DNA of 41,562 nt, from the NCBI GenBank assembly GCA_964395075.1, contig CAYNDN010000001.1, positions 13,182 to 54,743 on the forward strand, written 5' to 3'. The DNA comes from an uncultured Lentimicrobiaceae bacterium. Its GTDB lineage: Bacteria > Bacteroidota > Bacteroidia > Bacteroidales > 4484-276. The notes under the pieces are model-generated. The model had not been told where the DNA came from. It saw only the letters and a program-made list of their open reading frames with translations, and made no database searches. This document shows, piece by piece, positions 10,055 to 30,787 of the stretch (the first letter of the stretch is position 1; each line of letters opens with the position of its first letter). Position numbers and translations under genes: made by a program.

Positions 10055-12808
10055 ATGAAGCACTTTTATTCTCTGTTTCTCATCTCTCTTTCACTCATTT
10101 TTCCTCCGTTTACCGGACTTAACGCTCAGATTCCCGATAACTGGCAGGACGATACCGGCATCGTAACTTTCAAATCATCCGAAATTGTTTTTGAAGGCAA
10201 TTTTAGCTGTGGAATAGAAGTCAACACCGGCACACAGGCCGATTGTGATTTATCCAACCTGATATCAATTCCCGTATCCGCAGGCGAAACTTTTAAAATC
10301 TCATTCTGGTATTTCACCACCGAACATGTGAGAATGCGTGCTGCACTCGACTGGAATGAAGGCAACGCAACATATTCCCCAAATTATGCCGGCCCCACAA
10401 GCACCGGCGATTGGGAAGAGTTTGTTTATGAAAGCACTGTTCCTGAAAATGCAACCGCCGTTAACCTGCGCGTTCGCTGTTACGATGTTAGCGGATTTTC
10501 AGCACCTGAAACCCAGTATCTCGACGAGGTCACCTTTGAAAGTCCGGTGGGCAACCCTTTAACAGTAGCCAACGGATATTTCGAAAACTGGCCAACAGCT
10601 TTACCGGAACCAACATATTACCCCACCGATTTTTCTGCAAACTCAACCGGCTTGCAAATTCAACTCGATTGGGTTGATGCCATTGGAGAACAACTTCCCG
10701 ATGCGTATCTGATTCTGATAAATGATGACGATGAATTTGTTCCGCCTGCTGACGGCAACTTTGTTATTGACGACCTGGAACTGGAAGATGGCGAGGGTGC
10801 CGTAAATGTGGCTTTTGGCGAGGAGCAAATCGTGGTTTCGAATCTCCTGCCCGAAACAACCTATTATTTCAGAATCTATTCATATACCAATTCCGGAGCG
10901 GAAGTAGATTACAAAACCGATGGTATTCCACCATCTGCCGAGGCAACCACAGGAGAACTGCAACCGGAATTATCAGTGTTATCGCCGCAGGAGGGCGTTA
11001 CCTGGTATCGCGGAGTTGTTTTTGATATCGTTTGGTCTTCATTGAATTTAAACGGTGATGTATTGATCGAGATTACCGGAAATGCCTCATCAGGAAATCC
11101 TGCCTGGGTAGAACTGGCCACAGTTGCAGTAGCCAACGGTGTTTACGGCTGGTATATCCCTACCGATTATCCTTTTGGGAGTGATTACCAAATTCGCCTG
11201 ACGAGCCAGTTATTGCCACTGGAAGCATTAAGTGGAATTTTTTCGATAGATGATGAGCCGGAAATTCCATTGGTGGTGATCAACGAAATTATGTACAACC
11301 CACCATCAGCACTCGGCGATGACGATAATTGGGAGTTTATTGAAATTTATAACAACGACACAGAATCAGTTGATCTGAGTGGGTGGTCGTTTTCTGATGG
11401 CATAGATTTTAACTTTTCTGATGGCACCATTCTAAATGCCGGAGCCTATTTGGTGATAGCCCGTGTTCCGGATACCATTGCAGATTTTTACGGAATTTCA
11501 AATCTCACAGGCCCTTTTGAAAACGGCACAGCTTTAAACAATGGCGGTGAAAATGTAGAGCTGTCAGATGGCAGCGGAAATGTGGTTGATTTTGTTGATT
11601 ACGATGATGGTGGCGATTGGCCCTCAGAACCCGACGGTGACGGGCCGTCTTTATCCCTTATTAATCCCGATTTTGATAATAATCTGCCCGAAAGCTGGGA
11701 AGCCAGTGTTGTGCCTTTTGGTACGCCCGGCGTGATCAACAACCCCGAAGAACCTTTCATCGCGGTAACATATCCCAATGGTGGCGAAGTATTACAAAAA
11801 GAGCTCACCTACGATATTACCTGGACCTTTGACGATTTAAACGGAAATGTTTCCATCAAACTGGTGAGCCAGTCCGGCGGCACAACCATGCTGGATGAAT
11901 CCGTGGATGTTACGCAAAACACATGGGAATGGGAAATTGCGGATACTATCCCGACAGGAGATGATTACCTGATAAAAATCACCAGCCTCGAAAACCCCGA
12001 TGTTACCGATGAAAGCGACAATGTTTTTTCAATCATCGACCTGCAGCCACTGCCCGATCTGGTGATCACCGAAATCATGTATAACCCGCCTGAAAACGGT
12101 ACCGATTCACTTGAATTTATTGAGATTTATAACAACGACGATTTTACCGTTATGCTGGAAGGATTCTATTTCAGCGATGGGATAGAGTTCACCTTCCCGG
12201 ACATCAGTCTTGAACCCGCAGCATACCTTTTGGTAGCTGTTGACTCGCTGGCTATGCACAACACCTTTGAGGTAGCTGCCTGGCAATGGTCTGGCGGAGC
12301 TTTGAGCAATGGTGGCGAAACCGTTGAGTTGATGGATAGTTTTGATAACTTCGTAGATGTTGTTACCTACTCAGACCAGCTTCCCTGGGATACGCTTGCC
12401 GATGGTGGCGGACCTTCACTCACACTTTGCGATCCTGATTCCGATAACAGCCTGCCCGAAAACTGGCTCGTTTCTGCTGAATTTGCCGCCCTTAACGATG
12501 AAGGAGCTGAAATTTATGCAACACCCGGCGGCCCTTGTGTTACAACCAGAGTTATCGAATCTGAAAACAAATTGGATATACATATTTTCCCCAATCCGAA
12601 CAATGGTATTTTTACGCTAAAAACGGATACCGAATCACCGGTAAACATCTCAATTCAGGCTTTATCCGGAGTTAAAATCCTGGAAAGGCAACATGTTTCG
12701 GGAACCGTGGGTGTTAATGAGCAACTCCAACCCAGCGTTTACGTGCTCACCGTTGAAAACCTCATTACTGGCGAAACTACTTACAGGAAATTAATTATAC
12801 AGCAATAA
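10055..12808 (+). CDS. T9SS type-A cargo protein: CBM4/9-like N-domain, FN3-like module, two (Kre9-like Ig + lamin-tail domain) units, Por_Secre_tail CTD
   Basis: The ORF track starts at TTG 10046; the ATG at 10055 (MKHFYSLFLISLSLIFPPFTGLNA|Q) is the more likely start. LTD signatures occur at ~11270-11745 (VVINEIMYNPP...WEFIEIYNN...NNGGENVEL...DGDGPSLSL) and at ~12056-12540 (VITEIMYNPPENGTDSLEFIEIYNN...SNGGETVEL). The C-terminus (IHIFPNPNNGIFTL...YVLTVEN...RKLIIQQ) is a typical T9SS type-A sorting domain. Confidence 0.88.
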   Translation: MKHFYSLFLISLSLIFPPFTGLNAQIPDNWQDDTGIVTFKSSEIVFEGNFSCGIEVNTGTQADCDLSNLISIPVSAGETFKISFWYFTTEHVRMRAALDWNEGNATYSPNYAGPTSTGDWEEFVYESTVPENATAVNLRVRCYDVSGFSAPETQYLDEVTFESPVGNPLTVANGYFENWPTALPEPTYYPTDFSANSTGLQIQLDWVDAIGEQLPDAYLILINDDDEFVPPADGNFVIDDLELEDGEGAVNVAFGEEQIVVSNLLPETTYYFRIYSYTNSGAEVDYKTDGIPPSAEATTGELQPELSVLSPQEGVTWYRGVVFDIVWSSLNLNGDVLIEITGNASSGNPAWVELATVAVANGVYGWYIPTDYPFGSDYQIRLTSQLLPLEALSGIFSIDDEPEIPLVVINEIMYNPPSALGDDDNWEFIEIYNNDTESVDLSGWSFSDGIDFNFSDGTILNAGAYLVIARVPDTIADFYGISNLTGPFENGTALNNGGENVELSDGSGNVVDFVDYDDGGDWPSEPDGDGPSLSLINPDFDNNLPESWEASVVPFGTPGVINNPEEPFIAVTYPNGGEVLQKELTYDITWTFDDLNGNVSIKLVSQSGGTTMLDESVDVTQNTWEWEIADTIPTGDDYLIKITSLENPDVTDESDNVFSIIDLQPLPDLVITEIMYNPPENGTDSLEFIEIYNNDDFTVMLEGFYFSDGIEFTFPDISLEPAAYLLVAVDSLAMHNTFEVAAWQWSGGALSNGGETVELMDSFDNFVDVVTYSDQLPWDTLADGGGPSLTLCDPDSDNSLPENWLVSAEFAALNDEGAEIYATPGGPCVTTRVIESENKLDIHIFPNPNNGIFTLKTDTESPVNISIQALSGVKILERQHVSGTVGVNEQLQPSVYVLTVENLITGETTYRKLIIQQ

Positions 12809-12845: not shown

Positions 12846-15800
12846 ATGAAGAAAACTACAATTTTATTTTTGATTGCCATTTTTGCAATGGCGGGTACCA
12901 AGGCACAATTGCCTGACAACTGGTCTGACGACACAGGTATTGAAATTTTCCAGGAAAACACCGAAGTGCATGGTGGAACATATAGCGCAGGTGTTGTTGT
13001 AAATACTGAAACACAAGGCAATTGCGACTTTGCCAACGAGGTAACTATTCCTGTAAATGCAGGCGACTCCTATACTGTTTCTTTTTGGGCGTTTACAAGT
13101 GCAAACGTTCGCATTACTGCCGCCCTCGACTGGGATAATGGCGCAGAATATCCGGGAACCTACGTTGGTCCGGCAACTTCCGGCTGGGAAGAATACATTC
13201 AGGAAGGTACAGTTCCTGATGGAGCAACAACATTGAATATCCGTTTGCGATTTTATGATGTTTCCGGGTTTGAACCCGGGCAGGTTCAGTATGTTGATGA
13301 TGTAACTTTTGAATCTCCAACAGGAAATCTATTGACAGTAGCCAATGGCGATTTTGAAATATGGCCCGGCCTTTCACCCGAACCCACCGATTACCCCGAA
13401 GAATTTGAAGCATCAGCAGCCGGACTAAGTGCCGTGCTTTCATGGATTGATCCGGCAGGAGGCCAGCTGCCTGAAAACTACCTGATCAAAGCCAGTGTAG
13501 AAGACAACATTTCCAATCCTGAAGATGGCAGCTACATGCCGGATGATCTTAACCTTGCGGATGGCAGTGGTGCCGCCAATGTTGCATATGGCGAAGAAGG
13601 ATTTACATTTTCTGGCCTGACGCCGCAAACAACATATTACTTTAAGATTTTCCCTTACACAAATTCAGGCACAAATGTAGATTACAAGAATGATGGGACA
13701 CCACCTTCAGCGATGGCTGAAATTGCCCAAATCGTAATTATCGAAGCCCAGGATTTTGATGCATCTTTTGGAAGCTGGACACCTGTAAGCCTGGTTGGTG
13801 ATGCTGTTTGGGATCGCGATAACACATTCGGAGTAAATGGCACGCCCTGTGCTCAGATAACTGGTTATGAGAGTGGCAGTGGAACCACATTTGAAAATGA
13901 AGATTGGCTGATCTCTCCACCCATGGATTTTACAGAATACGAAAATGAAATCCTCACATTTTATTCAGCTGTGGGTTATATTACCCCGGATGAGCAATTC
14001 GCTGTTCGTGTTTCAAACGATTACGACGGAATCGGAAATCCCAATGATTTCACCTGGACTGACCTTGATCCAACACTTCCTGATGGAGGTTCAAACTGGG
14101 TTTGGACCTATTCAGGTGAGCTCGACATTTCAGGATTTGATGGTGACAATGTTCATGTGGCCTTTGTGTACTTCTGTGGCACCGACGATGCGGCCACCTG
14201 GGAGGTGGATGAAATCATGATCACCGGTGAGGGTGAGGCCGTAATCACTCCTGAGCCAACCAACTATCCAACAAGTTTTACAGCTACGGCATCAGGTACT
14301 GCGATCAACCTTTCGTGGATGGATGCTACCGGCGAAACCGTTCCAGCGGGATACCTGGTACTGGGAAGCGATCAGGACAATATTGCTCTACCGGTTGATG
14401 GAACACCTGTTTCCGATGATGCTGCTTTGAGCGATGGATCAGGCGCACTGAATATTTTACCCGGAATTCAAGCAGCTTCATTCTCGGGCCTGGCATCAGG
14501 AATGACCTACTATTTCAAGGCTTTCCCCTACACCAATTCAGGTAACCTGATTGATTACAAAACCGATGGAACGCCACCGGCTGCTGAGGCAACCACAGAA
14601 GTTTCAACGGATATTTTGTTTACCGATTTTAATGACAGTTGGGGTGGATGGACACCGGTGAGCCTTGTTGGAAATCAGATTTGGGACAGAAACAATACTT
14701 TTGGGCTTGAAGATTCGCCATGTGCAAAAATGAGTGGTTACGACGGAGAACATTTTGCCAATGAAGATTGGCTTATCTCACCTGTCTTAAACCTTTCAGC
14801 AACCAATAATGAAATTGTCAATTTCTACTCCGCAACAAGTTTCACAGGGCCGGCACTTCAATTTTTAGTATCAGATGATTACGATGGAACCGGAAATCCC
14901 AACGACTTTAACTGGAGCGATTTTTCTCCATTTGTTAATTGGTCAACAGGTGGTTATGAATGGACACTTTCTGGTGATATCGATCTCTCAGCATTTACCG
15001 ACCAGACTATTTATCTGGCTTTTAAATATACCTCTTCAAATCAGGAATCAGCTATTTGGGAAGTTGACAATATTTTTGTAACACAAGGTGAAGCAAAACC
15101 TGAACCCAGTAACTATCCAACCTCTTTCAGTGTTTTTGCACTTCAGCAAACCATTACTGCAACATGGGCTGATGCAAGTGGAGATGCTATCCCTGATGGA
15201 TACCTGCTTTTGATCAGCGATCAGGAAACAATTTCGCTACCTGATGACGGCACACCTGTGACTGATGATACCGATTTTAGTGATGGCAATGGTGCAATGA
15301 ATGTTATGCCCGGAACAGAAACCTCTACATTTATCGGACTACAGGAGTTAACAACTTATTATCTTGTTATTACTCCCTACACCAATTCTGGTTCCCTTAT
15401 TGATTATAAAACAGATGGCTTTCCACCAAGCGGTTCTGTGGCAACTGAAGAAGCAGCCCCGGAATTGCTATTCACAACATTCGACCTGGATTGGGAAGGC
15501 TGGACTCCGGTAAGTGCTATTGGTGATCAGGTTTGGAGCAGGGATAATTCTTATGGTATCGAAGGCACACCTTGTGCTCAAATGAGCGGCTATGAAGGTG
15601 AAGCTTACGAAAATCAGGATTGGCTCGTTTCACCGGTCATTGATTTAAGTGCCACCGTTAACGAGAAGTTAATATTTTTCTCAGCACTGGGTTACTCAGG
15701 CCCTGCTTTGCAATTATTTGTTTCCAGCGTGTATGATGGCTCTGGAAACCCCGCTGATTTCCCGTGGGATGAACTTACCGATCAGGCTGTATGGCCTGAA

Positions 15801-16208
15801 GATGGATCTTTTTTTGAATGGACTGAATCCGGAATTATCGATCTCGAAGATTATACTAACGAAACCATTTATATTGCTTTCGTTTATTCTTCCGAAGATG
15901 GGAATGCTGCAACATGGGAGGTTGACAATATTAAAGTAACAGGATATCCCAGCAGCCTGCCCGAAAACCTGCCATCAGTAAACCTCAACATCTGGCCAAA
16001 CCCGGCAAATGATGTACTGTACTTCAGTGCTGATGAAGCGGTTTCATCCATCGAGATTTATACAGTTACCGGATCGTTGGTTATCCAGTCAGATTTTGAT
16101 AAAATCTCCGGACAGGTTGATTTGGGAAGTCTCGATCAGGGCATTTATATGGCCAGGATAGTAACAGCAGAAAATAAAATTCTCAGCAGAAGAATCGTAA
16201 TACAATAA
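12846..16208 (+). CDS. T9SS type-A cargo protein: CBM4/9-like N-domain, three (FN3-like + choice-of-anchor-J/cleaved-adhesin-like) units, CTD
   Basis: 1120 aa with signal peptide MKKTTILFLIAIFAMAGTKA|Q. The N-domain is paralogous to those of the 10055 and 16247 genes. FN3-like modules start with PEP(T/S)(D/N)YP at nt 13377, 14250 and 15098. Each is followed by a ~175-aa beta-sandwich-like domain with W(T)PVS..GD.VW.RDN...PCA.(I/M)(T/S)GY...NEDWLISP. The CTD reads LNIWPNPANDVLYF...GIYMARIV...RRIVIQ. Only 37 nt separate it from the upstream gene. Confidence 0.9.
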   Translation: MKKTTILFLIAIFAMAGTKAQLPDNWSDDTGIEIFQENTEVHGGTYSAGVVVNTETQGNCDFANEVTIPVNAGDSYTVSFWAFTSANVRITAALDWDNGAEYPGTYVGPATSGWEEYIQEGTVPDGATTLNIRLRFYDVSGFEPGQVQYVDDVTFESPTGNLLTVANGDFEIWPGLSPEPTDYPEEFEASAAGLSAVLSWIDPAGGQLPENYLIKASVEDNISNPEDGSYMPDDLNLADGSGAANVAYGEEGFTFSGLTPQTTYYFKIFPYTNSGTNVDYKNDGTPPSAMAEIAQIVIIEAQDFDASFGSWTPVSLVGDAVWDRDNTFGVNGTPCAQITGYESGSGTTFENEDWLISPPMDFTEYENEILTFYSAVGYITPDEQFAVRVSNDYDGIGNPNDFTWTDLDPTLPDGGSNWVWTYSGELDISGFDGDNVHVAFVYFCGTDDAATWEVDEIMITGEGEAVITPEPTNYPTSFTATASGTAINLSWMDATGETVPAGYLVLGSDQDNIALPVDGTPVSDDAALSDGSGALNILPGIQAASFSGLASGMTYYFKAFPYTNSGNLIDYKTDGTPPAAEATTEVSTDILFTDFNDSWGGWTPVSLVGNQIWDRNNTFGLEDSPCAKMSGYDGEHFANEDWLISPVLNLSATNNEIVNFYSATSFTGPALQFLVSDDYDGTGNPNDFNWSDFSPFVNWSTGGYEWTLSGDIDLSAFTDQTIYLAFKYTSSNQESAIWEVDNIFVTQGEAKPEPSNYPTSFSVFALQQTITATWADASGDAIPDGYLLLISDQETISLPDDGTPVTDDTDFSDGNGAMNVMPGTETSTFIGLQELTTYYLVITPYTNSGSLIDYKTDGFPPSGSVATEEAAPELLFTTFDLDWEGWTPVSAIGDQVWSRDNSYGIEGTPCAQMSGYEGEAYENQDWLVSPVIDLSATVNEKLIFFSALGYSGPALQLFVSSVYDGSGNPADFPWDELTDQAVWPEDGSFFEWTESGIIDLEDYTNETIYIAFVYSSEDGNAATWEVDNIKVTGYPSSLPENLPSVNLNIWPNPANDVLYFSADEAVSSIEIYTVTGSLVIQSDFDKISGQVDLGSLDQGIYMARIVTAENKILSRRIVIQ

Positions 16209-16246: not shown

Positions 16247-19200
16247 ATGAAAAAACTAACAGTGCTTTTATCCATAATTCTTTTTGCAATTTCAATGCAG
16301 GCGCAACTCCCGCTGAATTGGGTCGGAGATTCTGATATTGAACCGTTCCAGGAAGCAACCAACGTACACGAAGGCAGCTTCAGTTGTGGAATTATCGTAA
16401 ACTCAGGAACACAGGCCAGCTGCGATTTTGAAAGTGCGGAGGAGATTCCCGTGAATGGCGGCGATTCATTTAAAATGTCATTCTGGGGCATTGCCAGCGA
16501 ATTTGTTCGTGCCCGTGCCAAGATTGTCTGGTCGGACGGAAACACCACCTATGCCACAACTTATCTGGGGCCAAATACCGGTGGCTGGGAAGAATTTTCT
16601 TTTGAAGGCGAAGTGCCTGCGGATGCTACAGGAGCTACTGTTGGCATACGTTACTATGACGTATCAGGTTTTACTCCCGGCGAAATCCAGTACCTCGATG
16701 CCGTTACTTTCGAATCACCCACCGGAAACCCGTTGATGGTTGAAAACGGTGATTTTGAAGACTGGCCGGGCCTGGATCCGGAGCCGGATAATTACCCAAC
16801 AGATTTTACTGCCGAAACCCTTGGTCTCAGCGTTTCATTGTCGTGGACGGATGCCGTGGGAAGCCAGCTACCTGCCGGTTACCTCATCAAGGCAAGCACC
16901 GACAACAACATCACCCTGCCCGAAGATGGTACATTCGTTCCCGATGATCTGGATCTTTCTGATGGAACAGGTGCAGCCAACGTTGCTTTTGGTGAGGAAG
17001 GATTCAGCTTCACCAATCTTGAGGGAGCAACAACTTACTATTTCAAAATTTTCCCATACAGCAATTCAGGTGCAAATGTTGACTATAAAACAGATGGAAC
17101 ACCACCATCAGCCGAAGGGCAAACCTCTGATGTTGTAATTATTGAAGAACAGAACTTTGATGAAAGCTTTGGAGAATGGAGCCTGGTAAGTGTGCTGGGT
17201 GACGAAGTTTGGACCAACGATAATAATTACGGACTGGAAGGCACACCATGCGCACAAATTACCGGCTACGTGAGTGGGACTATCTACCCTAACGAAGACT
17301 GGCTCATTTCACCGGCTATGGATTTTAGCAGCTACGAAAATGAGGTTTTCTCATTCTGGTCGGCTGTTGGATACATCACTGCAAATGAAGTTTTTGGTGT
17401 GCGCATTTCAACTGATTATGATGGAGGCCCTGATCCAAATACTTCTACCTGGACCGACCTCGAACCTGTTTTACCTGATGGCGGAACGAACTGGGAATGG
17501 ACCTATTCTGAAGATATGGATGTTTCGTCGTTTGACGGTGATAACGTTTACGTGGCGTTTATTTACTATTGTGATGATCAGGATGCCTCAACCTGGGAAG
17601 TTGAAAATGTAATGATCACCGGTGAAGGCGAATATACACCCAATCCGGAACCCACAAATTATCCAACTGATTTTTCAGCCATGGCTCAAGGACAGGACAT
17701 CGACCTCTCATGGACCGACGCCACAGGAGCCCAATTGCCGGCCGGATATGTTGTGATTGGTTCAGATGATGGCAGTTTTGAAGTTCCCGTTGACGGAACG
17801 CCGGTTGCCAATGATCCCGACTTCAGCGATGGCTACGGGGTTTTAAATGTTGCACTTGGAACTCAAGCCTGCAGCTTCAACGACCTCATGGGTAACACCA
17901 CCTACTATTTTACCATTTATCCTTATACAAACTCCGGAGCTTACATCGATTACAAAACCGACGGAACTGCCCCCGAAGCTGAAGCCACAACTGTTGAGGT
18001 TTCTTCGTTGCTGTTCACCGACTTTAATGATGACTGGGGTGGCTGGACCACCATCAGCCTGGTGGGTGACCAGCAATGGAGCCGCGACAATACTTACGGA
18101 CTGGAAGATACACCCTGCGCCCTGATGAGTGGCTACCAGAGTGGAAACTTTGAAAATGAAGACTGGCTGATATCACCGCCACTGGATTTTTCGGAAACCA
18201 GCAACGAAGTACTTAAGTTTTTCTCAGCCAAAAATTACACCGGCCCACAGCTTGAACTCAGGGTTTCCACCGATTACGACGGTGCAGGAAATCCAAACGA
18301 TTTCACCTGGACCAACCTCACCAATGAAGTAAACTGGTCCGGTGGCGCATTTGCATGGACAGAATCGGGAACCATCTCACTGTCGCCGTTTACCAGCCAT
18401 ACTTCGGTTTACATTGGTTATCAGTTTTTTTCCACAGATGAAGCTTCAGCAAATTGGGAAATTGATAACGTAGAAGTAATCATGGAAGAGGCTCCCCCGG
18501 AACCCACCAATTACCCCGCCAATTTCAGTGCTGAGGGATATTCAAATGACATTACCCTTTCGTGGACAGACGCCACCGGCGAAGTGTTGCCCGAAAAGTA
18601 TTTATTGCTCGCCAGCGATGATGATGATATTGAACTACCTGAAGATGGCGTCCCGGTAACTGATGACCCTGATCTGTCGGATGGGTCGGCAGCATTAAAT
18701 ATCAGCTATGGCGTTGAAGAACATACCTTTAGTTACCTTGAAATGGGCACCTGGTACTACTTCAGGATTTTTCCCTATACCAATTCAGGTTCACTGATCG
18801 ATTACAAAACCGATGGAACACCTCCCTCCACCTCACAAAAGACATGGGACAGCTATCCTTTAGAAGACATACTATACACAACTTTTGACGAAGACTGGGA
18901 AAACTGGGAGCAGATTAGTATTGCTGGAGACCAGGTATGGGATCGGGATAATACCTTTGGCATCGACGATACACCATGCGCAAGGATCAGTGGATTTAGC
19001 GGTCAGTCCAATGAAAACGAGGATTGGTTAATATCACCCCAGGTTGATGTAGGTGGTTCTTGGTTTGGTGATCAACTCATTTTTAATTCAGCGGTTGGTT
19101 TTAGCGGTCCTGATCTTCAGGTAAAAATTTCTGCCAATTACAATGGGAATGGTGATCCATACAGTGCTGACTGGACTGATGTTACTGAATATGCAAACAT

Positions 19201-22700: not shown

Positions 22701-25700
22701 GCTGGTGTAACTGCCGGCGATCCGTTTGATAACAGCGACGATGTGTTTGAAATCATCGAGCCTTTGCCTGATCCGGATATCGTGATCAACGAAATTATGT
22801 ATGACCCACCTGAATCTGGAACAGATAGTTTAGAATATATCGAACTATATAATAATAGTGGGTTTGATGTAGAGATTTCTGGTTGGAGTTTTTCTGAAGG
22901 AGTAAGCTATACTTTTGAAGAAGGACAGATGATTCTAAATGATGAGTATCTTGTTATTGCAGGTAATGCATCTGCTGTTTCAAATACTTATGGTATAACA
23001 GGCGTTTTGCAATGGACCTCTGGTGGATTAAGTAACGGTGGTGAGGATATCATTTTGATAAATGAATTGGGTGTTGAAATGGATATGGTTGATTATGACG
23101 ATTCACCTCCATGGCCAACAGAACCAGATGGAAATGGTCCTTCTTTAGAGTTAATTGATCCTAACCTGGATAACAGCTTGCCCGAAAGTTGGATGGGTAG
23201 TATAGAGCCTAATCCAAATGGAACCCCCGGTGCTGTGAACTCGGTATTTGGTGCTGAATTTATTACGCTGGTAGCACCCAACGGCGGCGAAACTTTCGAG
23301 CAGGGCAGCTCGCAGGAAGTATCGTGGACTTACAGCGGATTTGATGGTGACCTTAAAATCGGGATCATCGACGTGGTGCTTGAAGATACCACAACCCTGG
23401 CCGAAAATGTGCCGGTTGAATTTGGCCTGTGGGACTGGGAAGTTCCAGGTGATTTCACTACCGGCGACAACTATAAAATACTGATTTCGGAAATGACAGA
23501 TGGCGAACCCATGGACGAAAGCGATGCTGTGTTCAGCGTGGTTGAACAAATAATTCCCGTTATTACGGTTACCGCTCCCAATGGCGGTGAATCATGGACT
23601 CAGGGAACCTCCCGCAATATTACATGGGTGTCGGAATTTGTGACCGTTGATGTAAAGGTTGAACTGTCTGACGGTACTGATGCAATCATACTACTTGAAG
23701 ATTCTATTCCGGTTGCCAATGGTTTATTTGTTTGGGAAATTCCCGCTGACCAAACTGCTGGCGATACATACAGTGTTATCGTTTCTACAATGGACGGAGT
23801 TGTATCAGATATAAGTGATGCACCGTTCTCAATTGTTGAACCGGAACCTGTTCCTGAACTCGTAATTAATGAGATTATGTATAACACGCCTGGCCTCGAT
23901 AACGAATGGTGTGAAATCTATAATCCTGGTACTGAAACCATCAACCTTGAAGGATTTTACCTGCTCGACAGTGATGACGACCATACGCCGGTAGTGTTCC
24001 CGGCTGGTTATAGCATTGCTCCGGGACAGTATTTTACAATATCACTTGAACTATTAAATCCCCCTTTGGCATTCGTTCCCGACTTTGAGGGCATTGCGGA
24101 GTGGGCACTGAATAACGGAGGTGACGAACTCAGGCTTTTCCATTCCTCCGCACAATTAATTAATGCCGTAGCTTACGATGATGGTGGCGACTGGCCATCT
24201 GAACCGGATGGAAACGGCCCTTCACTTTCATTACTTGAACCGATACTCGACAACAGCCTCGGTGAAAACTGGGCCGGCAGCCTCCAGGACAACGGCACAC
24301 CGGGAAGCGAAAACTTCCCGACAACACCGACCATTACAGTGGTTACACCCAACGGCGGCGAATCCATTCAGCAGGGAACCACCTACGATATCACCTGGAC
24401 GTATGCCAACTACGACGGCACTGTGAAAGTTGAGCTCATAACACCGGACAAGGCGGCTACAACACTTGGCTACGCAGCTCTAGCTGATATGATGTTTGCA
24501 TGGATGGTTTCAGAAGATACCGGAGATAGCTACACCGTAATGGTTTCCGATTCACTTACCGGCGATCCGATGGATGAAAGCGATGCACCATTTTCAATCG
24601 TTCCACCGGCAGAACTTCCGGATATCGTAATCAACGAAATCATGTACAATGCGCCGGAATCAGGAACCGATTCTCTCGAATTTATTGAGCTTTACAACAA
24701 TGGCGCTGAAATAGTAAACCTCGAAAACTGGTACTTCAGCCAGGGTGTTGATTTCACCTTCCCGAACTATGAACTGGCAGCCGGTGATTATGTGGTTGTT
24801 GCTTATAATGCTGATGTAATGCTCAATAATTTTGGTGTTACAGCTTTGGAATGGACAGGCGGTGGCTTGAGCAATGGTGGTGAAGACATCGAACTCCGCA
24901 ATGCAACTGACGATGTTGTGGATTATGTGGATTATGATGATGGTGGTTTCTGGCCCAATGCGCCGGATGAATATGGCCCGTCACTGGCTCTGGCTGATCC
25001 TGCTTCTGACAACGAACTGCCTGAAAACTGGAAACCCGAAACCGTGTTTGCTTTCGATCATGTTGTTGGCATTCCGGTTTATGCTTCTCCGGGAGCCATG
25101 AATTTCAGCACACCCGGACAGGGAATTTTGGTTTCATCCGGCTGGACAGGTGTTTCAACTTACAATGACCTGGATAATCCGGCAGTGGAACAAAACATGA
25201 GCAGTGTTGTGGATGACCTTGTTGTGATGCAGGATTTCGCGAATATTTATTATCCGGCGTTCAACATCAATACCATCTTAACCTGGCAACCCGACAATGG
25301 TTATCAGCTTAAAATGGATGCAACCCGCTATCTTGTGCTTTACGGAACAGTTTCAGCTGACCAGACAGTTGATCTAACCGCAGGCTGGAACAGTCTGCCG
25401 GTATTGAGTGATTGTGATGTGGAAGCAGCTACATTGTTTACAGACGTAACAGAAGTTGAGTTTGTTAAAGAGATGGGCGGAGATAAAATCTGGTGGCCTG
25501 GCGGAAGTCTGTTTACACTTGATTTCCTTGAACCTGGCAAGGCATATTACATCAAGGTTAGTGCCGATGTAAGCATCACATTTCCGGCATGTACATCCAA
25601 ATCAGGGTTTGAAATTTCTGAAACTTCTTTCATCAACCATACAACCTGGAACGATGCTTCCCCGACCGCTGTTTCTCATGCAATAGGTATTGAAGCAACC

Positions 25701-26252
25701 GCACTTGAGCAATTCAACAAAGGTGATGTGATTGGTGCTTTCACCCAGGAGGGTTTTTGTGCAGGTATGGTTCAGGTAAATCACGAAAGTGCAACGCTGA
25801 TGGTTTGGGGTGATGATATTTACACCAATACAGCAGATGGGCTGTCAGAGGACGAAAACATAATCTTCCGATTTTTTGATGCCGCCACCGGTGAAGTTGT
25901 TGAGCTTGTGCCTGAACTTGACGCGCGATTCGAAAACAGCGGTCAGTTTAAAACACACGGCATTTCTTATATCATTGGGTTCAAGGCTGGTGCAACCGGC
26001 ATAAACGAACTGCAGGCAATTTCAGAAATTTACCCCAACCCAACATCAGGGCTGCTGAATATTTCGGTTGATGCAGATGCTTTTGACAGGATGGAAGTAT
26101 ATTCAGCAATTGGCAGAAAAGTAATGGAGAAGAATATTACTGAAAGCCAGATGGTAATTAATCTTAAAAATCTTGATAACGGTTACTACTTCATTAAATT
26201 TGTAAATTCAGTGAGTGGAGAATTCGAAAGCAATAATTTTATCAAGCAGTAA
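19722..26252 (+). CDS. Giant (2176 aa) multidomain T9SS type-A cargo protein
   Basis: Signal peptide MKKLLQFMPLLILPVAFILMSYS. Approximate module order from motifs:
- Reeler-like domain with CVQCH (19794-20262).
- Class-I LTD, DLFFSEYAEGSSYNKYVEIYNGTG (20281-20790).
- Two copies of [Fn3_assoc/chitobiase-C-like (ADIYYTTDGTDPD) + YhcR-type OB-like (KYIQDATAGILIDD...GTLGEYDGMMQFVP)] (20808-22469).
- Kre9-like Ig domains (PNGGE(T/S)W..G..Y.I.W) alternating with three class-II LTDs beginning near 22780, 23860 and 24625.
- Unnamed domain A (25117-25602).
- Unnamed domain B (25640-26010).
- CTD (IYPNPTSGLLNISV...GYYFIKF...NFIKQ). Confidence 0.9.
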   Translation: MKKLLQFMPLLILPVAFILMSYSSGSPGGRSGSPGDGGNSCVQCHSSFPTISVTDWITSDIPAGGYELSEVYNITMTGIHEGVSKFGFEFTAEDSEGNKVGTLSILNPTETQLTNGTVAATHTSQGTTPIGDSKSWTVEWTAPDDPAGDVTFYASLNAANGNGSTSGDQIYLGSLTVGEVGSGGGASDLFFSEYAEGSSYNKYVEIYNGTGTAVDLSIYEVKIASNGNAWGNTQALSGDLADGDVFILAHASASTEILALANITNSSVINFNGDDAMGLFKDGILIDAIGVENEDPGSYWPVAGVSNGTQNHTLVRKPDVCEPTTDWALSAGTNADDSQWIVNPQNYWDNLGFHISNCQGGQIVATPEFSEPGGTYTEPISVSITCATAGADIYYTTDGTDPDENSTPYLLPISISETTTLKARAYADGFDPSFIATAVYNFPETVSTLAELRNGTIGNTYLLTGEVWLTYQQSFRGQKYIQDATAGILIDDDAGIITTVYQIGDGIQGISGTLGEYDGMMQFVPDTDPGDPVSSGNFPTPQVVTLDELFTNFEDYESELVQVNDITFTDGGGTFDNGQIYPISDASKADANFRSTFWYVDYIGTTIPDIALDIVGLPNAYDNENYITSRNLNDFLLGNIVATPYFEPEGGQYENPVMVEILCDTDDAEIYYTTDGTDPDQSSTLFIDPFEISETTTVKARAYKEGFDPSLIGTAQYYFAETVATLAELRAGVIGNTYTLDGEVWITFMQSYRNQKFVQDETAAILIDDNDGILNSDLEIGDGITGLSGVLDEYNGMLQFVPDADPGDPTSSGNFPEPQLVTINELFANFEDYEAELVKIESATFADAGGTFSTGTVYPISDDSKANGNFRTSFYDADYIGSDIPAAPTDIIGLPNAVYNENYITARSDADLIVNQVPPEIVVQTPNGGETWQQTKTYTIEWLNLNFAGNVNINLLRGAFTNIALAQDIPNTGSWSWTIPESITPAADWKIRVAGVTAGDPFDNSDDVFEIIEPLPDPDIVINEIMYDPPESGTDSLEYIELYNNSGFDVEISGWSFSEGVSYTFEEGQMILNDEYLVIAGNASAVSNTYGITGVLQWTSGGLSNGGEDIILINELGVEMDMVDYDDSPPWPTEPDGNGPSLELIDPNLDNSLPESWMGSIEPNPNGTPGAVNSVFGAEFITLVAPNGGETFEQGSSQEVSWTYSGFDGDLKIGIIDVVLEDTTTLAENVPVEFGLWDWEVPGDFTTGDNYKILISEMTDGEPMDESDAVFSVVEQIIPVITVTAPNGGESWTQGTSRNITWVSEFVTVDVKVELSDGTDAIILLEDSIPVANGLFVWEIPADQTAGDTYSVIVSTMDGVVSDISDAPFSIVEPEPVPELVINEIMYNTPGLDNEWCEIYNPGTETINLEGFYLLDSDDDHTPVVFPAGYSIAPGQYFTISLELLNPPLAFVPDFEGIAEWALNNGGDELRLFHSSAQLINAVAYDDGGDWPSEPDGNGPSLSLLEPILDNSLGENWAGSLQDNGTPGSENFPTTPTITVVTPNGGESIQQGTTYDITWTYANYDGTVKVELITPDKAATTLGYAALADMMFAWMVSEDTGDSYTVMVSDSLTGDPMDESDAPFSIVPPAELPDIVINEIMYNAPESGTDSLEFIELYNNGAEIVNLENWYFSQGVDFTFPNYELAAGDYVVVAYNADVMLNNFGVTALEWTGGGLSNGGEDIELRNATDDVVDYVDYDDGGFWPNAPDEYGPSLALADPASDNELPENWKPETVFAFDHVVGIPVYASPGAMNFSTPGQGILVSSGWTGVSTYNDLDNPAVEQNMSSVVDDLVVMQDFANIYYPAFNINTILTWQPDNGYQLKMDATRYLVLYGTVSADQTVDLTAGWNSLPVLSDCDVEAATLFTDVTEVEFVKEMGGDKIWWPGGSLFTLDFLEPGKAYYIKVSADVSITFPACTSKSGFEISETSFINHTTWNDASPTAVSHAIGIEATALEQFNKGDVIGAFTQEGFCAGMVQVNHESATLMVWGDDIYTNTADGLSEDENIIFRFFDAATGEVVELVPELDARFENSGQFKTHGISYIIGFKAGATGINELQAISEIYPNPTSGLLNISVDADAFDRMEVYSAIGRKVMEKNITESQMVINLKNLDNGYYFIKFVNSVSGEFESNNFIKQ
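20808..22469 (+). repeat. Internal in-frame duplication, 2 x 831 nt (277 aa), of the Fn3_assoc + OB-like cassette
   Basis: Copy 1 starts at 20808 (IVATPEFSEPGGTYTEP...). Copy 2 starts at 21639 (IVATPYFEPEGGQYENP...). They are collinear throughout (YYTTDGTDPD(E/Q), VKARAY(A/K)(D/E)GFDPS, TLAELR.G.IGNTY.L.GEVW(L/I)T, MQFVPD.DPGDP.SSGNFP.PQ(V/L)VT). Protein identity is high but the nucleotide copies are not identical. Confidence 0.85.
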
Positions 26253-26278
26253 TAATTTCTTAATCATATAAATCATGG

Positions 26279-26357
26279 GGTTGCATTAAATGGTATTGTT
26301 CTGATGATTCTCATAACGGAATTTTTCAAAGCAAAATCAGTTGGTGCAACCTTTTTT
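26279..26357 (+). terminator. Possible terminator after the giant gene (weak)
   Basis: GGTTGCA (26279-26285) can pair with TGCAACC (26345-26351), which is followed directly by TTTTTT (26352-26357). The intervening 59 nt is long. A minimal local hairpin gttg-gtg-caac is also possible. I have not evaluated folding. Confidence 0.3.
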
Positions 26358-26410
26358 ATTGATTTTTAATTTCAAAACAAAACATATTTATTCATTAAAA
26401 TTTTAACGTT

Positions 26411-29400
26411 ATGAAGAAAGTTTCACTATCAATTTTGTTTTTTTTGGCATTTGGGCTGGTAACCACCATCAACGCCCAGCCTTATAATGTCACCTTTCAG
26501 GTGGACATGTCACAATACGGGGGGTCTTTTACAACACCTGAGGTGAATGGTAATTTCAATGATTGGTGTGGTGGCTGTTTTGTGCTTGAGGATCTTGATC
26601 AGGATAATGTCTGGACAGGCACTGCACAATTGGAAGCCGGTGTTTATGAATATAAATTTGCGCACGACAGTTGGGCAGGGCAGGAATATTTAACGCCGGG
26701 GTCTCCCTGTACCATCACTACCAATGGATTTACCAACAGGCTTCTCGAGGTTACTGAAGATGTAACTTTACCTGTAGTTTGCTGGGAGAGCTGCGAAGCT
26801 TGTGGTGTTGTCGTTGAGCCGGTTGATGTTACTTTTCAGGTTGATATGAACGAATATGACGGTACATTTGCCAATGTTTACCTCAGTGGTGAGATGAATG
26901 GCTGGAATGGAACTGCCAATCAAATGCAGGATCCTGACATGGATGGAGTTTACGTAATTACACTATCACTGTTACCTGTTGCTTATGAATATAAGTTTAC
27001 GGTTGATGATTGGTCAGACCAGGAATTTTTTATTGAAGGCCAGATATGCACAGTTTCGGCTTTTGGTTTTACCAACAGGTATGTTGAGGTTACCGAAGCA
27101 GAAGTACTTCCTGTAGTTTGTTGGGAAAGTTGCTTTAGCTGTGGTGAACAGGTAAATGTAACTTTACAGGTAGATATGAACAATGAGGATGTTTCTGAAA
27201 ATGGGGTACATGTAGCCGGAAATTTTCAGGGATGGAACCCTGGTTCAACTCAATTAACTGACACAGGAAACGGCCTGTACACCTACTCGATGACTGTTGA
27301 TCCTGGCTTTCAGTTAGTTTACATTTTTATCAATGGCAACGACTGGGACTTCCAGGAAGCCGTTCCTGCTGAATGTGGGCTGGACAATGGCTTTGGTGGT
27401 TACAATCGCTATTTCGATGTACCTGAGTATGATGTTGTAATCGATGTGGTTTGCTTTGGTAGTTGTGGACTTTGTAACGGCCCAACCGACGAACTTATTA
27501 TTTCAGAATATGCTGAAGGCTCAGGAAGCAATAAATATGTGGAATTGTACAATGGAACAGGAGCCACTATCGATTTGTCGGAATATAATACCCACCGAAT
27601 AAGCAATGGCGGGCTTTGGGTTGATGAATACATTTATCCACTGGAAGGATTTTTGGAAGATGGTGAAGTTTATGTGATTGGCAACAATCAGGCGAATGCT
27701 TATATTCGGGACAGGTCAGATGTTGAAACTTCTTTAACCTGGTTCAATGGTAATGATGCTGTTGGCCTGTCGAAAAATGATGGCCAGGGCGGATGGACTA
27801 TTATCGACCAGGTTGGGGAAGAAGGAGATGCTGAATATTGGGATGTTGCAGGCGTTTCAAGTGCAACAGCCGGACACACACTGGTAAGGAAGATGGATGT
27901 TTGCGCACCAAACACTGACTGGCCTTCATCTGCCGGAACAAATACCGAAGATTCTGAGTGGATTGTTTATGGAGAAGATGATTGGAACAACCTGGGATAT
28001 CACAGCCATTTGTGCGGCGGTTCCCCAATTGTTGCTACTCCTTCTATTTCTGTCCCCTCAGGCTTGTATTTTGCGGCTTTCAATGTTGAATTATCCTGTG
28101 CAACACCCGGCGCAACCATATTCTATACCACTGATGGTTCCGATCCTGACCAGGGATCGGAAGAATATACAGGACCATTCGAAATTGCTGACGATACCGA
28201 ACTTAAAGTAATTGCAGTTGCTATAGGATACGGAAACAGTTTTGCAGCTTCGGCTTCTTACGATCTTGAACTTGCAACCGTTGTAGCTAACCTCGCCGAA
28301 TTGCGTGATGCTTATGGCGAAAAAGATGATTATTATCTGCTTGAAGGCGAGGTAGTGCTTACATTCCAGCAAAGCTATAGAAATCAAAAATTCATCCAGG
28401 ATGAAACTGCAGGTATTTTGATTGATGATTATTCCGGCGTGATTACAACAGATTATAACCGTTATGATGGAATTACCGGACTTGTTGGAACATTAAATGA
28501 ATATAAAAACATGTTGCAGTTTGTTCCTGCCGTTGATCCTGGTGCAGCTACTTCAACAAACAATGAAGTTGTTCCTCAGGTTATTCAACTATCAGAATTC
28601 ACAGGTAACTTTGAAGAATATGAAGCAGAGCTGGTACAAATTCTTGATGTAACTTTCGAAGACGCAGGCTCTTCTTTCTCAAATGGTACAGAGTATCCAA
28701 TCAGCGATGCCAGCAAAGGCGAAGGTGTTTTCAGAACATCTTTCTACTATGTAGATTATATTGGTTCGGCTATCCCACCTGTTGAAATTGGTGTAACAGG
28801 TATTGGTAACTCCAATGATGATGGTGATTTCATTACCGCGCGCGACTTTGGTGATTTGGATATCCCGGATTACGTAATTGTAACTAACCCAAATGGAGGC
28901 GAACAGGTTGAATTTGGAACCGGTTACGATATTTCGTGGGAAACAAACCTCGAAGATGGAACATTGGTTGATGTATATCTCTACGAAAATGACGGTAAAG
29001 CAGAAGAACTCCTTGCAGAAGACCTGTTAATCGAAACCGGCTTGTTCACATGGAATGTAACCCAATCTTATGGAGATAATTATAAAGTGAAAATAGCGGT
29101 TGACGATTCGATGCTCGAAGATATGAGCAACGACTTCTTTTCCATCGTTCCGCCCATCGACATCAAGATTACAGAGATTATGTACAACTCTCCCGAAGGT
29201 GGTGCCGATTCACTGGAATTTGTTGAATTCTACAACAATGGTGAAGGCATCGTAAACCTGATGGACTGGGAAATGACCCAGGGTGCTAATTTTACTTTCT
29301 CCGAGCACTTCCTCAACCCCGGTGAGTATGTACTTGTGGCTGAAAGTGCTGATGCAATGATGAATACTTTTGGTGTTGATGCGTATGAATGGAGTGGCGG

Positions 29401-30787
29401 ACTGAGCAACGGCGGTGAAGACATCGAACTCACTGACAACTCCGGAATTGTACGTGCTTATGTTGACTATGACGACGGTGGTGATTGGCCAAAAGCTCCG
29501 GATGGATATGGCCCTTCACTTGAGTTTTGTGATCCTTCGCTCGATAATGAAGATCCGTTAAACTGGAGCGCATCAACAAAACTTGTTACCATTAATGGTG
29601 ATGGTGCCGGAATTTATGCAACACCAATGGCCGGATGTAACGAAGACCCCGCTCTTCCGATGTATTATTCTTATGGTTGGACAGCCATTTCGAGCAACCT
29701 TGTTCCAGCTGAGCCAGCCATGGGCAATGTGTTTGCACCAATAAACTCACTGGTTATTCTCCTGAACAACAATGGAATTTACTGGCCTGAATTTAATGTT
29801 AATACAATTGGCGACTGGGATAGCCACAGTGGTTATAAAGTGAAGTTTGATGGCGGAACATACATGGTTTATTCCGGTACCCCCGTTGAATCTCAGGAAT
29901 ACAACTTTGTGCCCGGAACATTCTTTGTGCCGGTTCTCAGTGATGATCCTGTTTCCGTTGAAGATTTGATTGTGCCACTTGGTGATGCAGTAGAATTTAT
30001 GTTCGACCTGGAAAATGGAGCTGTTTACTGGTTCGACGGTGGAATTGTTCCCGGCGTTCAGGGAGCGCTTGAAACTTTAGAGCCAGGTTATGCTTACCTC
30101 ACCAAATTCAATGCAACCGGCACAATCGACTTTGGTGTTGAACCCACAAAAGCTGCTCCTCAAGAGGCTATTGTTATCGATAACACAACTTCATGGAACG
30201 ATGTGATGATTTCAGGAGAACAACATATTATCTCAATTTCAAAATCTGCATTGGCAGAACTGGAAACAGGTGATTTCATCGGTGCATTCAACAGCAAAAG
30301 TGTTTGTGTTGGTTTAACACAATACAACGGTGATCGCAACGCACTTCCAATGATCGTTTATGGTGACGATATGACCACGGATGAAACCGACGGCATGGTT
30401 GAGGGTGAAGCGATCTCATTTAGGATTTATCGTTACGGTGAAGAGATAGACGCACAGGCAGTTTACAACTTCAGTATGCAAAACCATGACGGATTGTTCG
30501 CTGAAAACGGCCTTTCAATGATTGAAGCATTCAAGGTAGGAGCTACGGGAATTGCTGACCAAAATGCAACCTACAGCATATATCCCAACCCGGGCAATGG
30601 TCAATTCAACATTGACATTGTTGGCGACTATGAAGTTACGGTTACCAATGCCCAGGGTCAGGTGATTTACCTTGGCCAGATCAGCGGAAATGCCGTGATC
30701 AACCTTTCAGATCAGTCTGAAGGAATCTACTTCATCAGGCTTACCGGTGAATCATCCTCGATGATAGAAAAGGTGATTGTGAAGTAG
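26411..30787 (+). CDS. 1458-aa T9SS type-A cargo protein: three CBM20/48-like repeats, class-I LTD, Fn3_assoc, OB-like, Kre9-like Ig, class-II LTD, domains A and B, CTD
   Basis: Signal peptide MKKVSLSILFFLAFGLVTTINA|Q. Approximate module order from motifs:
- Three ~111-aa repeats starting V(T/N)VTFQVDM and ending VVCWESC..CG.
- Class-I LTD, LIISEYAEGSGSNKYVELYNGTG (27487-27990).
- ATIFYTTDGSDPD (Fn3_assoc).
- KFIQDETAGILIDD...GTLNEYKNMLQFVP (OB-like, to ~28860).
- PNGGEQVEFGTGYDISW (Kre9-like).
- Class-II LTD, IKITEIMYNSPEGGADSLEFVEFYNN (29160-29640).
- Domain A (29653-30150).
- Domain B (30184-30560).
- CTD, IYPNPGNGQFNI...GIYFIRL...KVIVK. Confidence 0.9.
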   Translation: MKKVSLSILFFLAFGLVTTINAQPYNVTFQVDMSQYGGSFTTPEVNGNFNDWCGGCFVLEDLDQDNVWTGTAQLEAGVYEYKFAHDSWAGQEYLTPGSPCTITTNGFTNRLLEVTEDVTLPVVCWESCEACGVVVEPVDVTFQVDMNEYDGTFANVYLSGEMNGWNGTANQMQDPDMDGVYVITLSLLPVAYEYKFTVDDWSDQEFFIEGQICTVSAFGFTNRYVEVTEAEVLPVVCWESCFSCGEQVNVTLQVDMNNEDVSENGVHVAGNFQGWNPGSTQLTDTGNGLYTYSMTVDPGFQLVYIFINGNDWDFQEAVPAECGLDNGFGGYNRYFDVPEYDVVIDVVCFGSCGLCNGPTDELIISEYAEGSGSNKYVELYNGTGATIDLSEYNTHRISNGGLWVDEYIYPLEGFLEDGEVYVIGNNQANAYIRDRSDVETSLTWFNGNDAVGLSKNDGQGGWTIIDQVGEEGDAEYWDVAGVSSATAGHTLVRKMDVCAPNTDWPSSAGTNTEDSEWIVYGEDDWNNLGYHSHLCGGSPIVATPSISVPSGLYFAAFNVELSCATPGATIFYTTDGSDPDQGSEEYTGPFEIADDTELKVIAVAIGYGNSFAASASYDLELATVVANLAELRDAYGEKDDYYLLEGEVVLTFQQSYRNQKFIQDETAGILIDDYSGVITTDYNRYDGITGLVGTLNEYKNMLQFVPAVDPGAATSTNNEVVPQVIQLSEFTGNFEEYEAELVQILDVTFEDAGSSFSNGTEYPISDASKGEGVFRTSFYYVDYIGSAIPPVEIGVTGIGNSNDDGDFITARDFGDLDIPDYVIVTNPNGGEQVEFGTGYDISWETNLEDGTLVDVYLYENDGKAEELLAEDLLIETGLFTWNVTQSYGDNYKVKIAVDDSMLEDMSNDFFSIVPPIDIKITEIMYNSPEGGADSLEFVEFYNNGEGIVNLMDWEMTQGANFTFSEHFLNPGEYVLVAESADAMMNTFGVDAYEWSGGLSNGGEDIELTDNSGIVRAYVDYDDGGDWPKAPDGYGPSLEFCDPSLDNEDPLNWSASTKLVTINGDGAGIYATPMAGCNEDPALPMYYSYGWTAISSNLVPAEPAMGNVFAPINSLVILLNNNGIYWPEFNVNTIGDWDSHSGYKVKFDGGTYMVYSGTPVESQEYNFVPGTFFVPVLSDDPVSVEDLIVPLGDAVEFMFDLENGAVYWFDGGIVPGVQGALETLEPGYAYLTKFNATGTIDFGVEPTKAAPQEAIVIDNTTSWNDVMISGEQHIISISKSALAELETGDFIGAFNSKSVCVGLTQYNGDRNALPMIVYGDDMTTDETDGMVEGEAISFRIYRYGEEIDAQAVYNFSMQNHDGLFAENGLSMIEAFKVGATGIADQNATYSIYPNPGNGQFNIDIVGDYEVTVTNAQGQVIYLGQISGNAVINLSDQSEGIYFIRLTGESSSMIEKVIVK
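26480..27480 (+). repeat. Three tandem CBM-like coding repeats of ~111 aa each
   Basis: The VTFQVDM-type starts lie at nt 26486, 26828 and 27156, giving spacings of 342 and 328 nt. Each repeat contains W...(D/T)..(D/N)G(V/L)(W/Y)...YEYKF (YIFI in repeat 3) and ends with a Cys cluster: CWESCEACG, CWESCFSCG and CFGSCGLCNG. Confidence 0.7.

Follow-up and report, generated by a model that had tools for sequence, protein, structure and literature searches.

Five consecutive genes for putative type IX secretion cargo

The DNA analysed here, 41,562 nucleotides of contig CAYNDN010000001.1 (GenBank assembly GCA_964395075.1) from an uncultured Lentimicrobiaceae bacterium and hereafter called the window, carries an island of five plus-strand genes, G1 to G5, whose products are, as judged from their domains, type-A cargo of a type IX secretion system (T9SS) with DUF5689, lamin-tail (LTD), choice-of-anchor J and Kre9_KNH domains. 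Coordinates are window positions, and open reading frames (ORFs) come from a program-made list. G1 ends at 12808 and starts at a TTG at 10046 (920 amino acids, aa) or at an ATG at 10055 (917 aa), the latter being the likely start because the 81%-identical orthologue at locus L001 has 917 aa. G2 (12846–16208), G3 (16247–19624), G4 (19722–26252) and G5 (26411–30787) encode 1120, 1125, 2176 and 1458 aa respectively. The five co-oriented ORFs and their sizes had been listed in an initial annotation of this DNA and stand, except that the 920 aa assigned there to the ATG at 10055 belong to the TTG at 10046.

The G1–G2 and G2–G3 spacers are only 37 and 38 nt long and unfolded (0 and −0.1 kcal/mol), and G3 is followed by an intrinsic terminator (19635–19672, plus strand; hairpin at 19635–19666 with a 13-bp stem and a U-run; −18.8 kcal/mol, z −5.4), matching the operon packing and strong terminator first described for G1–G3. 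Comparable hairpins, also anticipated, lie on the same strand after the other two genes: a probable terminator after G4 (26277–26360; hairpin at ~26277–26353 plus U-run; −32.4 kcal/mol, z −5.0) and an intrinsic one after G5 (30812–30850; hairpin at ~30812–30843; −20 kcal/mol, z −4.5). On these signals G1–G3 are predicted to be one operon-like unit closed by its terminator, with G4 and G5 each separate. At ~77 nt, the hairpin downstream of G4 is of unusual length. Two relatives, down to ~65% protein identity, keep the outer stem of 10 bp (GGUUGCAUUA/UAAUGCAACC), the interior having diverged, and an AT-rich box (TTATTCATTAAAA) just 5′ of the G5 start (26385–26410) is likewise conserved. Scans for sigma-70-type and Bacteroides-type (TTTG...TAnnTTTG) promoters gave matches at chance level and none upstream of G1, G4 or G5, and Rfam, tRNA and tandem-repeat scans gave no match.

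Export signals and composition

By inspection, all five proteins begin with a Sec signal peptide-like segment (basic n-region, hydrophobic core and an A-x-A/AQ-type end). The Por_Secre_tail/TIGR04183 C-terminal sorting domain (CTD; PF18962) scored above the curated cut-off of 23 bits in G2–G5 (34.7–48.8 bits) and just below it in G1 (22.3 bits), whose orthologue carries PF18962. A signal peptide and a sorting domain had been claimed for every protein, and the G1 CTD is the borderline case. Moreover, the modelled C-terminal 75 residues of G4 superpose on solved T9SS CTDs (8glk_D, TM-score 0.77; also 8qb1).

All five proteins are strongly acidic and poor in basic residues, with 15.3–16.6% Asp+Glu (D+E) and 2.3–3.0% Lys+Arg (K+R); in G4, ~335 D+E face 61 K+R. 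This had been noticed before as a feature of the island, and measurement bears out the composition though not its specificity: the median K+R across 240 homologues is 3.1% (5th–95th percentile, 2.2–4.3%), and the protein encoded at 521–3091, outside the island proper, is also K+R-poor. We rejected alkaliphily or halophily as the cause, since K+R is normal (12%) in cytoplasmic proteins of the window, namely DnaK and a methylmalonyl-CoA mutase also encoded there, and because the depletion spans the family in metagenome-assembled genomes (MAGs) of many habitats. Protease resistance, or repulsion from anionic lipopolysaccharide (A-LPS), are possible reasons for it.

A shuffled set of modules without an enzyme

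We mapped domains with hidden Markov models (HMMs) built from the island's own module copies, together with Pfam and NCBIfam scans. Behind its signal peptide, G1 has an N-domain resembling family 4 carbohydrate-binding modules (CBM4-like; residues 29–179), an fn3 domain (193–285), two Kre9_KNH plus LTD units (313–389/409–519 and 576–652/671–775) and the CTD (847–918). In G2, and in its full-length paralogue G3 (55% identity), signal peptide and CBM4-like domain are followed by three pairs of fn3 and choice-of-anchor J/DUF5017 domains and then Por_Secre_tail. G4 opens with a signal peptide, a choice-of-anchor V/Reeler-like domain containing the motif CVQCH (16–175), an LTD like that of the nuclease ExeM (187–377) and a CHB_HEX_C/Fn3_assoc module (372–436). 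It continues with DUF5689 (445–635), CHB_HEX_C (649–713), a second DUF5689 (722–912) and, between 925 and 1738, the series Kre9+LTD, Kre9, Kre9+LTD, Kre9+LTD, and closes with two modules that we call A (1795–1957) and B (1972–2095) and with Por_Secre_tail (2103–2176). The order in G5 is signal peptide, three starch/glycogen-binding-type modules (38–349), ExeM-type LTD (360–554), CHB_HEX_C (549–613), DUF5689 (624–816), Kre9 (826–899), LTD (917–1020), module A (1078–1244), module B (1258–1382) and Por_Secre_tail (1390–1458).

The modules named in the initial annotation were all recovered, some under more precise names. Its NEDWLISP sandwich is choice-of-anchor J/DUF5017 (NF038128; 137.9 bits in G2 and 131.2 in G3 against a cut-off of 30, three stretches in each), with the NEDWLISP motif invariant in all three copies in a 13-sequence alignment; its OB-like domain is DUF5689; and its two classes of LTD are a canonical one and one like the N-terminus of ExeM. 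The CBM4/9-like domain is weak (~20 bits against the Pfam cut-off of 25.9), its resemblance in G1–G3 being to CBM4 modules from a xylanase (1k42) and a laminarinase (1gui) (PDB sequence search, E 8e-4 to 3e-3). The N-terminal array of G5 (26522–27457, plus strand) matches X25_BaPul_like (49 bits), AMPK1_CBM (56 bits) and CBM48 (35 bits), with a weak third copy, and homologues also carry CBM_20, which makes alpha-glucan binding by this array credible. Modules A and B matched no Pfam or NCBIfam family.

That one module set had been shuffled among the genes was likewise borne out by blocks of 40–55% identity in differing orders among G1–G5. The N-terminus of G1 is 45–48% identical to that of G2 and G3 and its C-terminus 42% identical to G4, so that by sequence G1 is a chimera, joining an N-terminus of the G2/G3 type to a C-terminus of the G4 type; long blocks common to G4 and G5 are 40–49% identical. 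There are no DNA-level repeats, and the module duplications are therefore old.

No catalytic family was found by Pfam or NCBIfam at permissive thresholds, whether in the whole proteins or in unassigned segments scanned separately, and PDB sequence searches returned nothing enzymatic, only T9SS CTD and weak CBM4-like matches (CTD alone for G4). An AlphaFold2 model of modules A and B together (19 homologues; predicted local distance difference test score, pLDDT, 74) consists of all-beta sandwiches, for which Foldseek found only generic immunoglobulin (Ig)/FN3 arrays with TM-scores below 0.2. The longest stretch outside any module in the domain map is ~72–75 aa. The lack of a recognizable catalytic domain first reported from reading the sequence thus persists through Pfam, NCBIfam, PDB sequence and AlphaFold2 plus Foldseek searches; had the genes simply encoded secreted enzymes, ordinary catalytic domains should have surfaced in the HMM scans and the structure search, and none did.

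Could an enzyme of a new kind be hidden here? Modules A and B lack a family, choice-of-anchor J lacks an assigned function, and the CxxCH of the G4 N-domain is conserved and could bind haem, so that module A, module B, choice-of-anchor J or choice-of-anchor V might be a new catalytic domain and the proteins hydrolases or redox proteins. We consider this very improbable, however, as each of these modules is a small all-beta sandwich, by prediction or from existing knowledge, with no structural neighbour resembling an enzyme, the homologue alignment contains no evident invariant triad of catalytic type and no gap between modules exceeds ~75 aa.

Two features of these modules deserve mention in their own right. 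The CVQCH motif (19842–19856) lies in an N-domain of G4 (19767–20246) that is optional: each of the four homologues with the domain keeps the CxxCH (as CVQCH, CTQCH or CTGCH), and other orthologues lack the domain entirely. The motif could be where c-type haem attaches to a T9SS cargo protein. Module A also occurs in the 856-aa product of the plus-strand gene at 521–3091, a sixth secreted acidic protein that shares modules with the island (K+R 2.2%), which has Cys-rich repeats of ~90 aa, an Ig domain and no Por_Secre_tail, and whose end (residues 689–854) is 35% identical to G4 1795–1957. Since this protein stops after module A, as do several G4 homologues (P0131, P0132 and P0135–P0142, which end directly after it at '...FPxC'), module A may be able to serve as a C-terminal end domain by itself.

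DUF5689 and ExeM-type LTD relate G4 and G5 to proteins handling extracellular DNA

Three DUF5689 copies are encoded on the plus strand, two in G4 (21054–21626, and 21885–22457 with E 4.5e-8) and one in G5 (28280–28858, E 3.4e-8). Against a PF18942 cut-off of 28.6 bits, whole G4 scored 52.9 (two stretches), G4 700–920 scored 33.7 and G5 610–830 scored 34.1. AlphaFold2 modelled the first copy (G4 440–660; pLDDT 88.3, predicted TM-score 0.77) as a tandem oligonucleotide/oligosaccharide-binding (OB) fold like that of HIN domains. In Foldseek its top 36 PDB matches were all tandem-OB nucleic-acid binders (probability ~1.0, TM-scores 0.30–0.44), namely the HIN domains of p204, IFI16, AIM2, p202 and MNDA (several with double-stranded DNA, dsDNA), followed by Teb1, TEBP and RPA. 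Five of the six Lys/Arg residues of G4 440–660 vary little or not at all among 20 diverse copies, and the conserved basic residues of this copy are R453, R476, K479, R594 and R630.

The LTD that precedes these modules (20280–20852 in G4, plus strand) is matched by residues 24–199 of the ExeM model NF033680 (G4 187–377, E 9e-20; G5 361–538, E 5e-18), and both proteins fall far short of membership in the whole-protein family (70 and 64 bits; cut-off 1300), with no endonuclease/exonuclease/phosphatase (EEP) domain or other nuclease family. Furthermore, G4 189–730 is 46–50% identical over 445–570 aa to cassettes in proteins of 2300–2800 aa that bear Endonuclease_1 (PF04231, E 4e-40) and are equally K+R-poor (~3%). 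The relatives P0097 and P0101 fuse LTD, CHB and DUF5689 with fn3–choice-of-anchor J and a CTD in one polypeptide, from which it follows that both halves of the module set, that of G4/G5 and that of G2/G3, belong together.

In Bacteroides thetaiotaomicron, the DUF5689 protein DdbD is paired with the TonB-dependent transporter DdbC in the DNA-utilisation locus ddbABCDEF; its HIN/tandem-OB resemblance has been reported, and it has been related to RA0C_RS04920 of Riemerella anatipestifer (Sharan et al., PMC12478041). The latter, which combines DUF5689 with DUF5017/choice-of-anchor J, is a proposed surface dsDNA receptor whose markerless deletion abolishes natural transformation (PMC8459023). Because DUF5689, ExeM-type LTD and choice-of-anchor J have all been tied in the literature to the handling of extracellular DNA, a guess at the ligand is possible that goes beyond 'surface-binding'.

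A rather doubtful alternative is that the proteins bind glycans only, as non-catalytic surface glycan-binding proteins (SGBPs) of the SusE/SusF type or analogues of cellulosome-like scaffolds, with OB, LTD and CHB_HEX_C modules all engaging sugars and the cell held on particulate polysaccharide, for instance granules of starch or glycogen, beta-glucan or chitin. The X25 and AMPK1_CBM/CBM48 modules at the N-terminus of G5, with CBM20 in homologues, would fit this, as would the similarity of the G1–G3 N-domain to the CBM4 of 1k42 and 1gui and the role of CHB_HEX_C_1/Fn3_assoc as accessory modules of chitobiases; OB folds, too, include oligosaccharide binders, and proteins so acidic are a priori poor candidates for binding DNA. 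On the other hand, the CBM4 call is under the Pfam cut-off, those proteins that most resemble DUF5689 in structure all bind nucleic acids, and outside the family the cassette has its nearest relatives in Endonuclease-I proteins, not in glycosidases. Moreover, neither the window nor any of 79 related loci has a SusC/SusD pair, glycoside hydrolases or a regulator, and on this ground we rejected a polysaccharide utilization locus (PUL). SusE and SusF do resemble the island proteins in being non-catalytic surface arrays of tandem binding modules, with modules of starch type at the N-terminus of G5, but the latter are far larger, are not lipoproteins, do not lie in a PUL and take another secretion route.

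The island is linked to dnaK in uncultured Bacteroidales

The G3 family comprises more than 530 database proteins and the G4 family more than 1000. Among species-representative genomes the family was found (at least 561 matches) only in MAGs from anoxic habitats, those of uncultured Bacteroidales, Lentimicrobiaceae, Prolixibacteraceae and Marinilabiliales, with digesters, meromictic lakes, the Black Sea and peat among the sources. In our window, dnaK (7937–9862, plus strand, with its own terminator at 9881–9908) is the upstream neighbour of G1, and this neighbour is kept in Bacteroidales: of 40 MAG loci in which dnaK is present, 38 have a family member directly downstream of it. A relative with 74–81% identity has the identical order mutase–dnaK–G1–G2–G3–G4–G5, and relatives at ~60% have six genes, for proteins of 1178, 951, 1107, 1118, 2014 and 1450 aa. 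Two or more family members lie side by side in 54 of 79 non-redundant loci of species-representative Bacteroidales genomes, and dispersal of the genes in related genomes, which would have spoken against a dedicated apparatus, was thus not what we found. The commonest form is a pair in which an LTD protein is followed by a choice-of-anchor-J protein of ~540 aa, and comparison of the loci suggests that the island is probably a lineage-specific expansion, in Lentimicrobiaceae, of an older two-gene core that many anaerobic Bacteroidales have downstream of dnaK. We found no paper that describes these proteins or the dnaK-linked cluster, and databases name the proteins by domain only.

The absence of enzymes and the conserved linkage together lend support to the non-enzymatic surface-binding or coat apparatus that the initial annotation had envisaged, 'coat' and 'binding' being properties that we infer. 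That the proteins are mainly a protective coat, that is, an anionic brush resembling a surface layer (S-layer) or glycocalyx, directed against particles, phages, proteases and cationic peptides, with its modules as spacers and its lack of Lys/Arg as a shield from trypsin- or gingipain-like proteases, is improbable to us. The acidity and K+R depletion are indeed extreme and uniform in the family, arrays of Ig-like, fn3, Kre9 and LTD sandwiches as long as these are found in stalks, type-A CTD cargo builds both the electron-dense surface layer in Porphyromonas and the Tannerella S-layer, and modules A and B weakly touch S-layer and adhesin arrays in Foldseek. Mere spacers, however, would hardly account for ligand-type modules so strongly conserved (the invariant NEDWLISP, the Arg/Lys residues of DUF5689), for bona fide starch-binding modules or for five to six differing paralogues side by side, which argue for distinct specificities; nor is there evidence of self-assembly.

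In 47 of 81 Bacteroidales loci, the gene pair is directly followed by a gene for a protein of ~515–525 aa with a signal peptide and no CTD (for example, L062:12045–13622, L039:14672–16219 and L013:13869–15413), and many of the loci then continue with a gene for a PKD-repeat protein (~2400–2600 aa). The ~520-aa protein, which matched no Pfam or NCBIfam family, was sought as a possible missing component of the island and is absent from the window. Downstream of G5, on the minus strand, lie a gene for a 498-aa protein (31672–33168) that combines fn3 with a T9SS sorting domain of type B (CHU_C/TIGR04131) and two genes for M16-family (insulinase-like) peptidases (33223–35747), the first with an active and an inactive domain and the second with an inactive one only; a ROK-family regulator/kinase and a GDSL hydrolase are encoded further on. 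With type-A CTDs in the island and a type-B CTD at 31672–33168, both CTD classes are therefore used by this organism.

Discussion

We propose, with confidence that reaches about even, that the island encodes a nuclease-free, T9SS-anchored capture coat for extracellular DNA and glucans. Given their domains and what is established for T9SS, the proteins would each leave via Sec and cross the outer membrane through the type-A CTD, which would be cut off as PorU sortase ties the protein to A-LPS, and the surface would thereby be clad in a layer of long, strongly negative, modular binding arms. G4 and G5, with ExeM-type LTD, CHB_HEX_C and three DUF5689 modules and no nuclease attached, would be the recognition half of an extracellular DNA machinery, to which G2 and G3 would contribute six copies of choice-of-anchor J/DUF5017, the partner module of DUF5689 in the Riemerella DNA-uptake protein. 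Starch/glycogen-binding modules would be added by G5 and a CBM4-like module by G1–G3. Polymers of dead cells, extracellular DNA first but also alpha- and beta-glucans, would then be caught at the surface for foraging, attachment or matrix building, with hydrolysis and uptake left to proteins encoded elsewhere.

Several observations weigh against such a DNA-capture role. In the literature we found no biochemical proof of DNA binding for any DUF5689 protein, the case in the 2025 paper being a structural inference, and our own Foldseek TM-scores were modest (0.30–0.44). OB folds also bind oligosaccharides, and LTD, CHB_HEX_C and Fn3_assoc occur in carbohydrate-active and CotH-type proteins too. 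The net charge of the island proteins is very strongly negative, with no K/R-rich patch at sequence level, and to bind DNA they would have to rely on their few conserved basic residues or on bridging by divalent cations. These objections are tempered by the Endonuclease-I-bearing relatives, which are equally K+R-poor, and by the near or complete invariance of five of the six Lys/Arg residues in the DUF5689 module. The window holds no nuclease, DdbC-type TonB transporter or competence gene, nor any T9SS machinery gene, export being deduced from the CTDs. Finally, the LTD has no settled role, and ExeM stays active in vivo without it (PMC6085458).

Of the characterized proteins, DdbD and RA0C_RS04920 are the closest in kind to G4 and G5, which share with them the PF18942 family, represented by three copies, the predicted tandem-OB/HIN-like fold and cell-surface exposure in Bacteroidota (predicted, for the island, from sequence). 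The pairing of DUF5689 with choice-of-anchor J in RA0C_RS04920 recurs across neighbouring genes of the island, and within one polypeptide in relatives. Proteins of the DdbD type, however, are lipoproteins of ~450–500 aa encoded beside DdbC and nucleases, whereas the island module resides in T9SS type-A cargo of 1458–2176 aa. We rejected the island as a ddb locus, with which it has only the module in common, as its proteins have no lipobox Cys and neither the window nor the related islands encode a TonB-dependent transporter or a nuclease.

The extracellular nucleases ExeM, Xds and NucH (LTD, OB and EEP domains) have the same LTD subtype at the N-terminus followed by an OB-type module, but they possess an EEP nuclease and a GlyGly-CTERM/rhombosortase anchor, unlike G4 and G5, which have a T9SS CTD, many extra modules and no nuclease; without an EEP domain, G4 and G5 were rejected as ExeM-type nucleases. 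The giant Endonuclease-I fusions (P0144–P0147, P0178, P0200 and P0217) come from uncultured bacteria, with neighbouring matches labelled Cloacimonadota. They have repeated LTD–CHB_HEX_C/Fn3_assoc–DUF5689 cassettes and the K/R depletion seen in G4, and differ from the nuclease-free G4 and G5 in having Endonuclease_1 and PKD domains and another C-terminal motif. These fusions (2300–2800 aa) end not in Por_Secre_tail but in a common '...MKFFKIEASTD...AK', which may be a different sorting signal, and their neighbours include Por_Secre_tail proteins (the locus of P0146 is L082). A precedent for DNA-directed T9SS cargo exists in Flavobacterium johnsoniae NucA (PDB 8glk).

With Porphyromonas gingivalis HagA and Tannerella forsythia TfsA/TfsB and BspA the island proteins share a Sec signal, Por_Secre_tail, expected A-LPS anchoring and large size built of beta-sandwiches, but they lack any Cleaved_Adhesin, leucine-rich repeat or S-layer family match (PF07675, Cleaved_Adhesin, is absent from the Pfam matches at E ≤ 0.01), and neither their set of LTD, Kre9_KNH, DUF5689 and choice-of-anchor J domains nor a cluster beside dnaK has been described for those proteins. 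A gliding adhesin of the SprB/RemA type was rejected, as all five CTDs are type A and the sole type-B CTD belongs to the unrelated protein at 31672–33168.

Extracellular DNA is a major pool of phosphorus, nitrogen and carbon in anoxic sediments and digesters, and how abundant uncultured Bacteroidales acquire it is poorly known. On a conservative reading, the locus is a clean, conserved and purely non-catalytic cluster of T9SS cargo, ~20 kb long, in uncultured organisms. Going further, and only tentatively, these proteins might represent an undescribed class of T9SS-anchored, nuclease-free receptors for extracellular DNA, a 'DNA-capture coat' encoded beside dnaK in uncultured anaerobic Bacteroidales and expanded in Lentimicrobiaceae-like lineages to 20-kb islands of five to six genes, that would serve phosphorus or nucleobase foraging, matrix building or T9SS-linked natural transformation. 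If this were true, it would assign a function to widespread bacterial modules (LTD, DUF5689, choice-of-anchor J/DUF5017 and Kre9_KNH); and if DNA is what the proteins bind, surface capture would be split from hydrolysis and uptake in these bacteria, and the Ddb and natural-transformation systems of 2021–2025 would be linked to type IX secretion.

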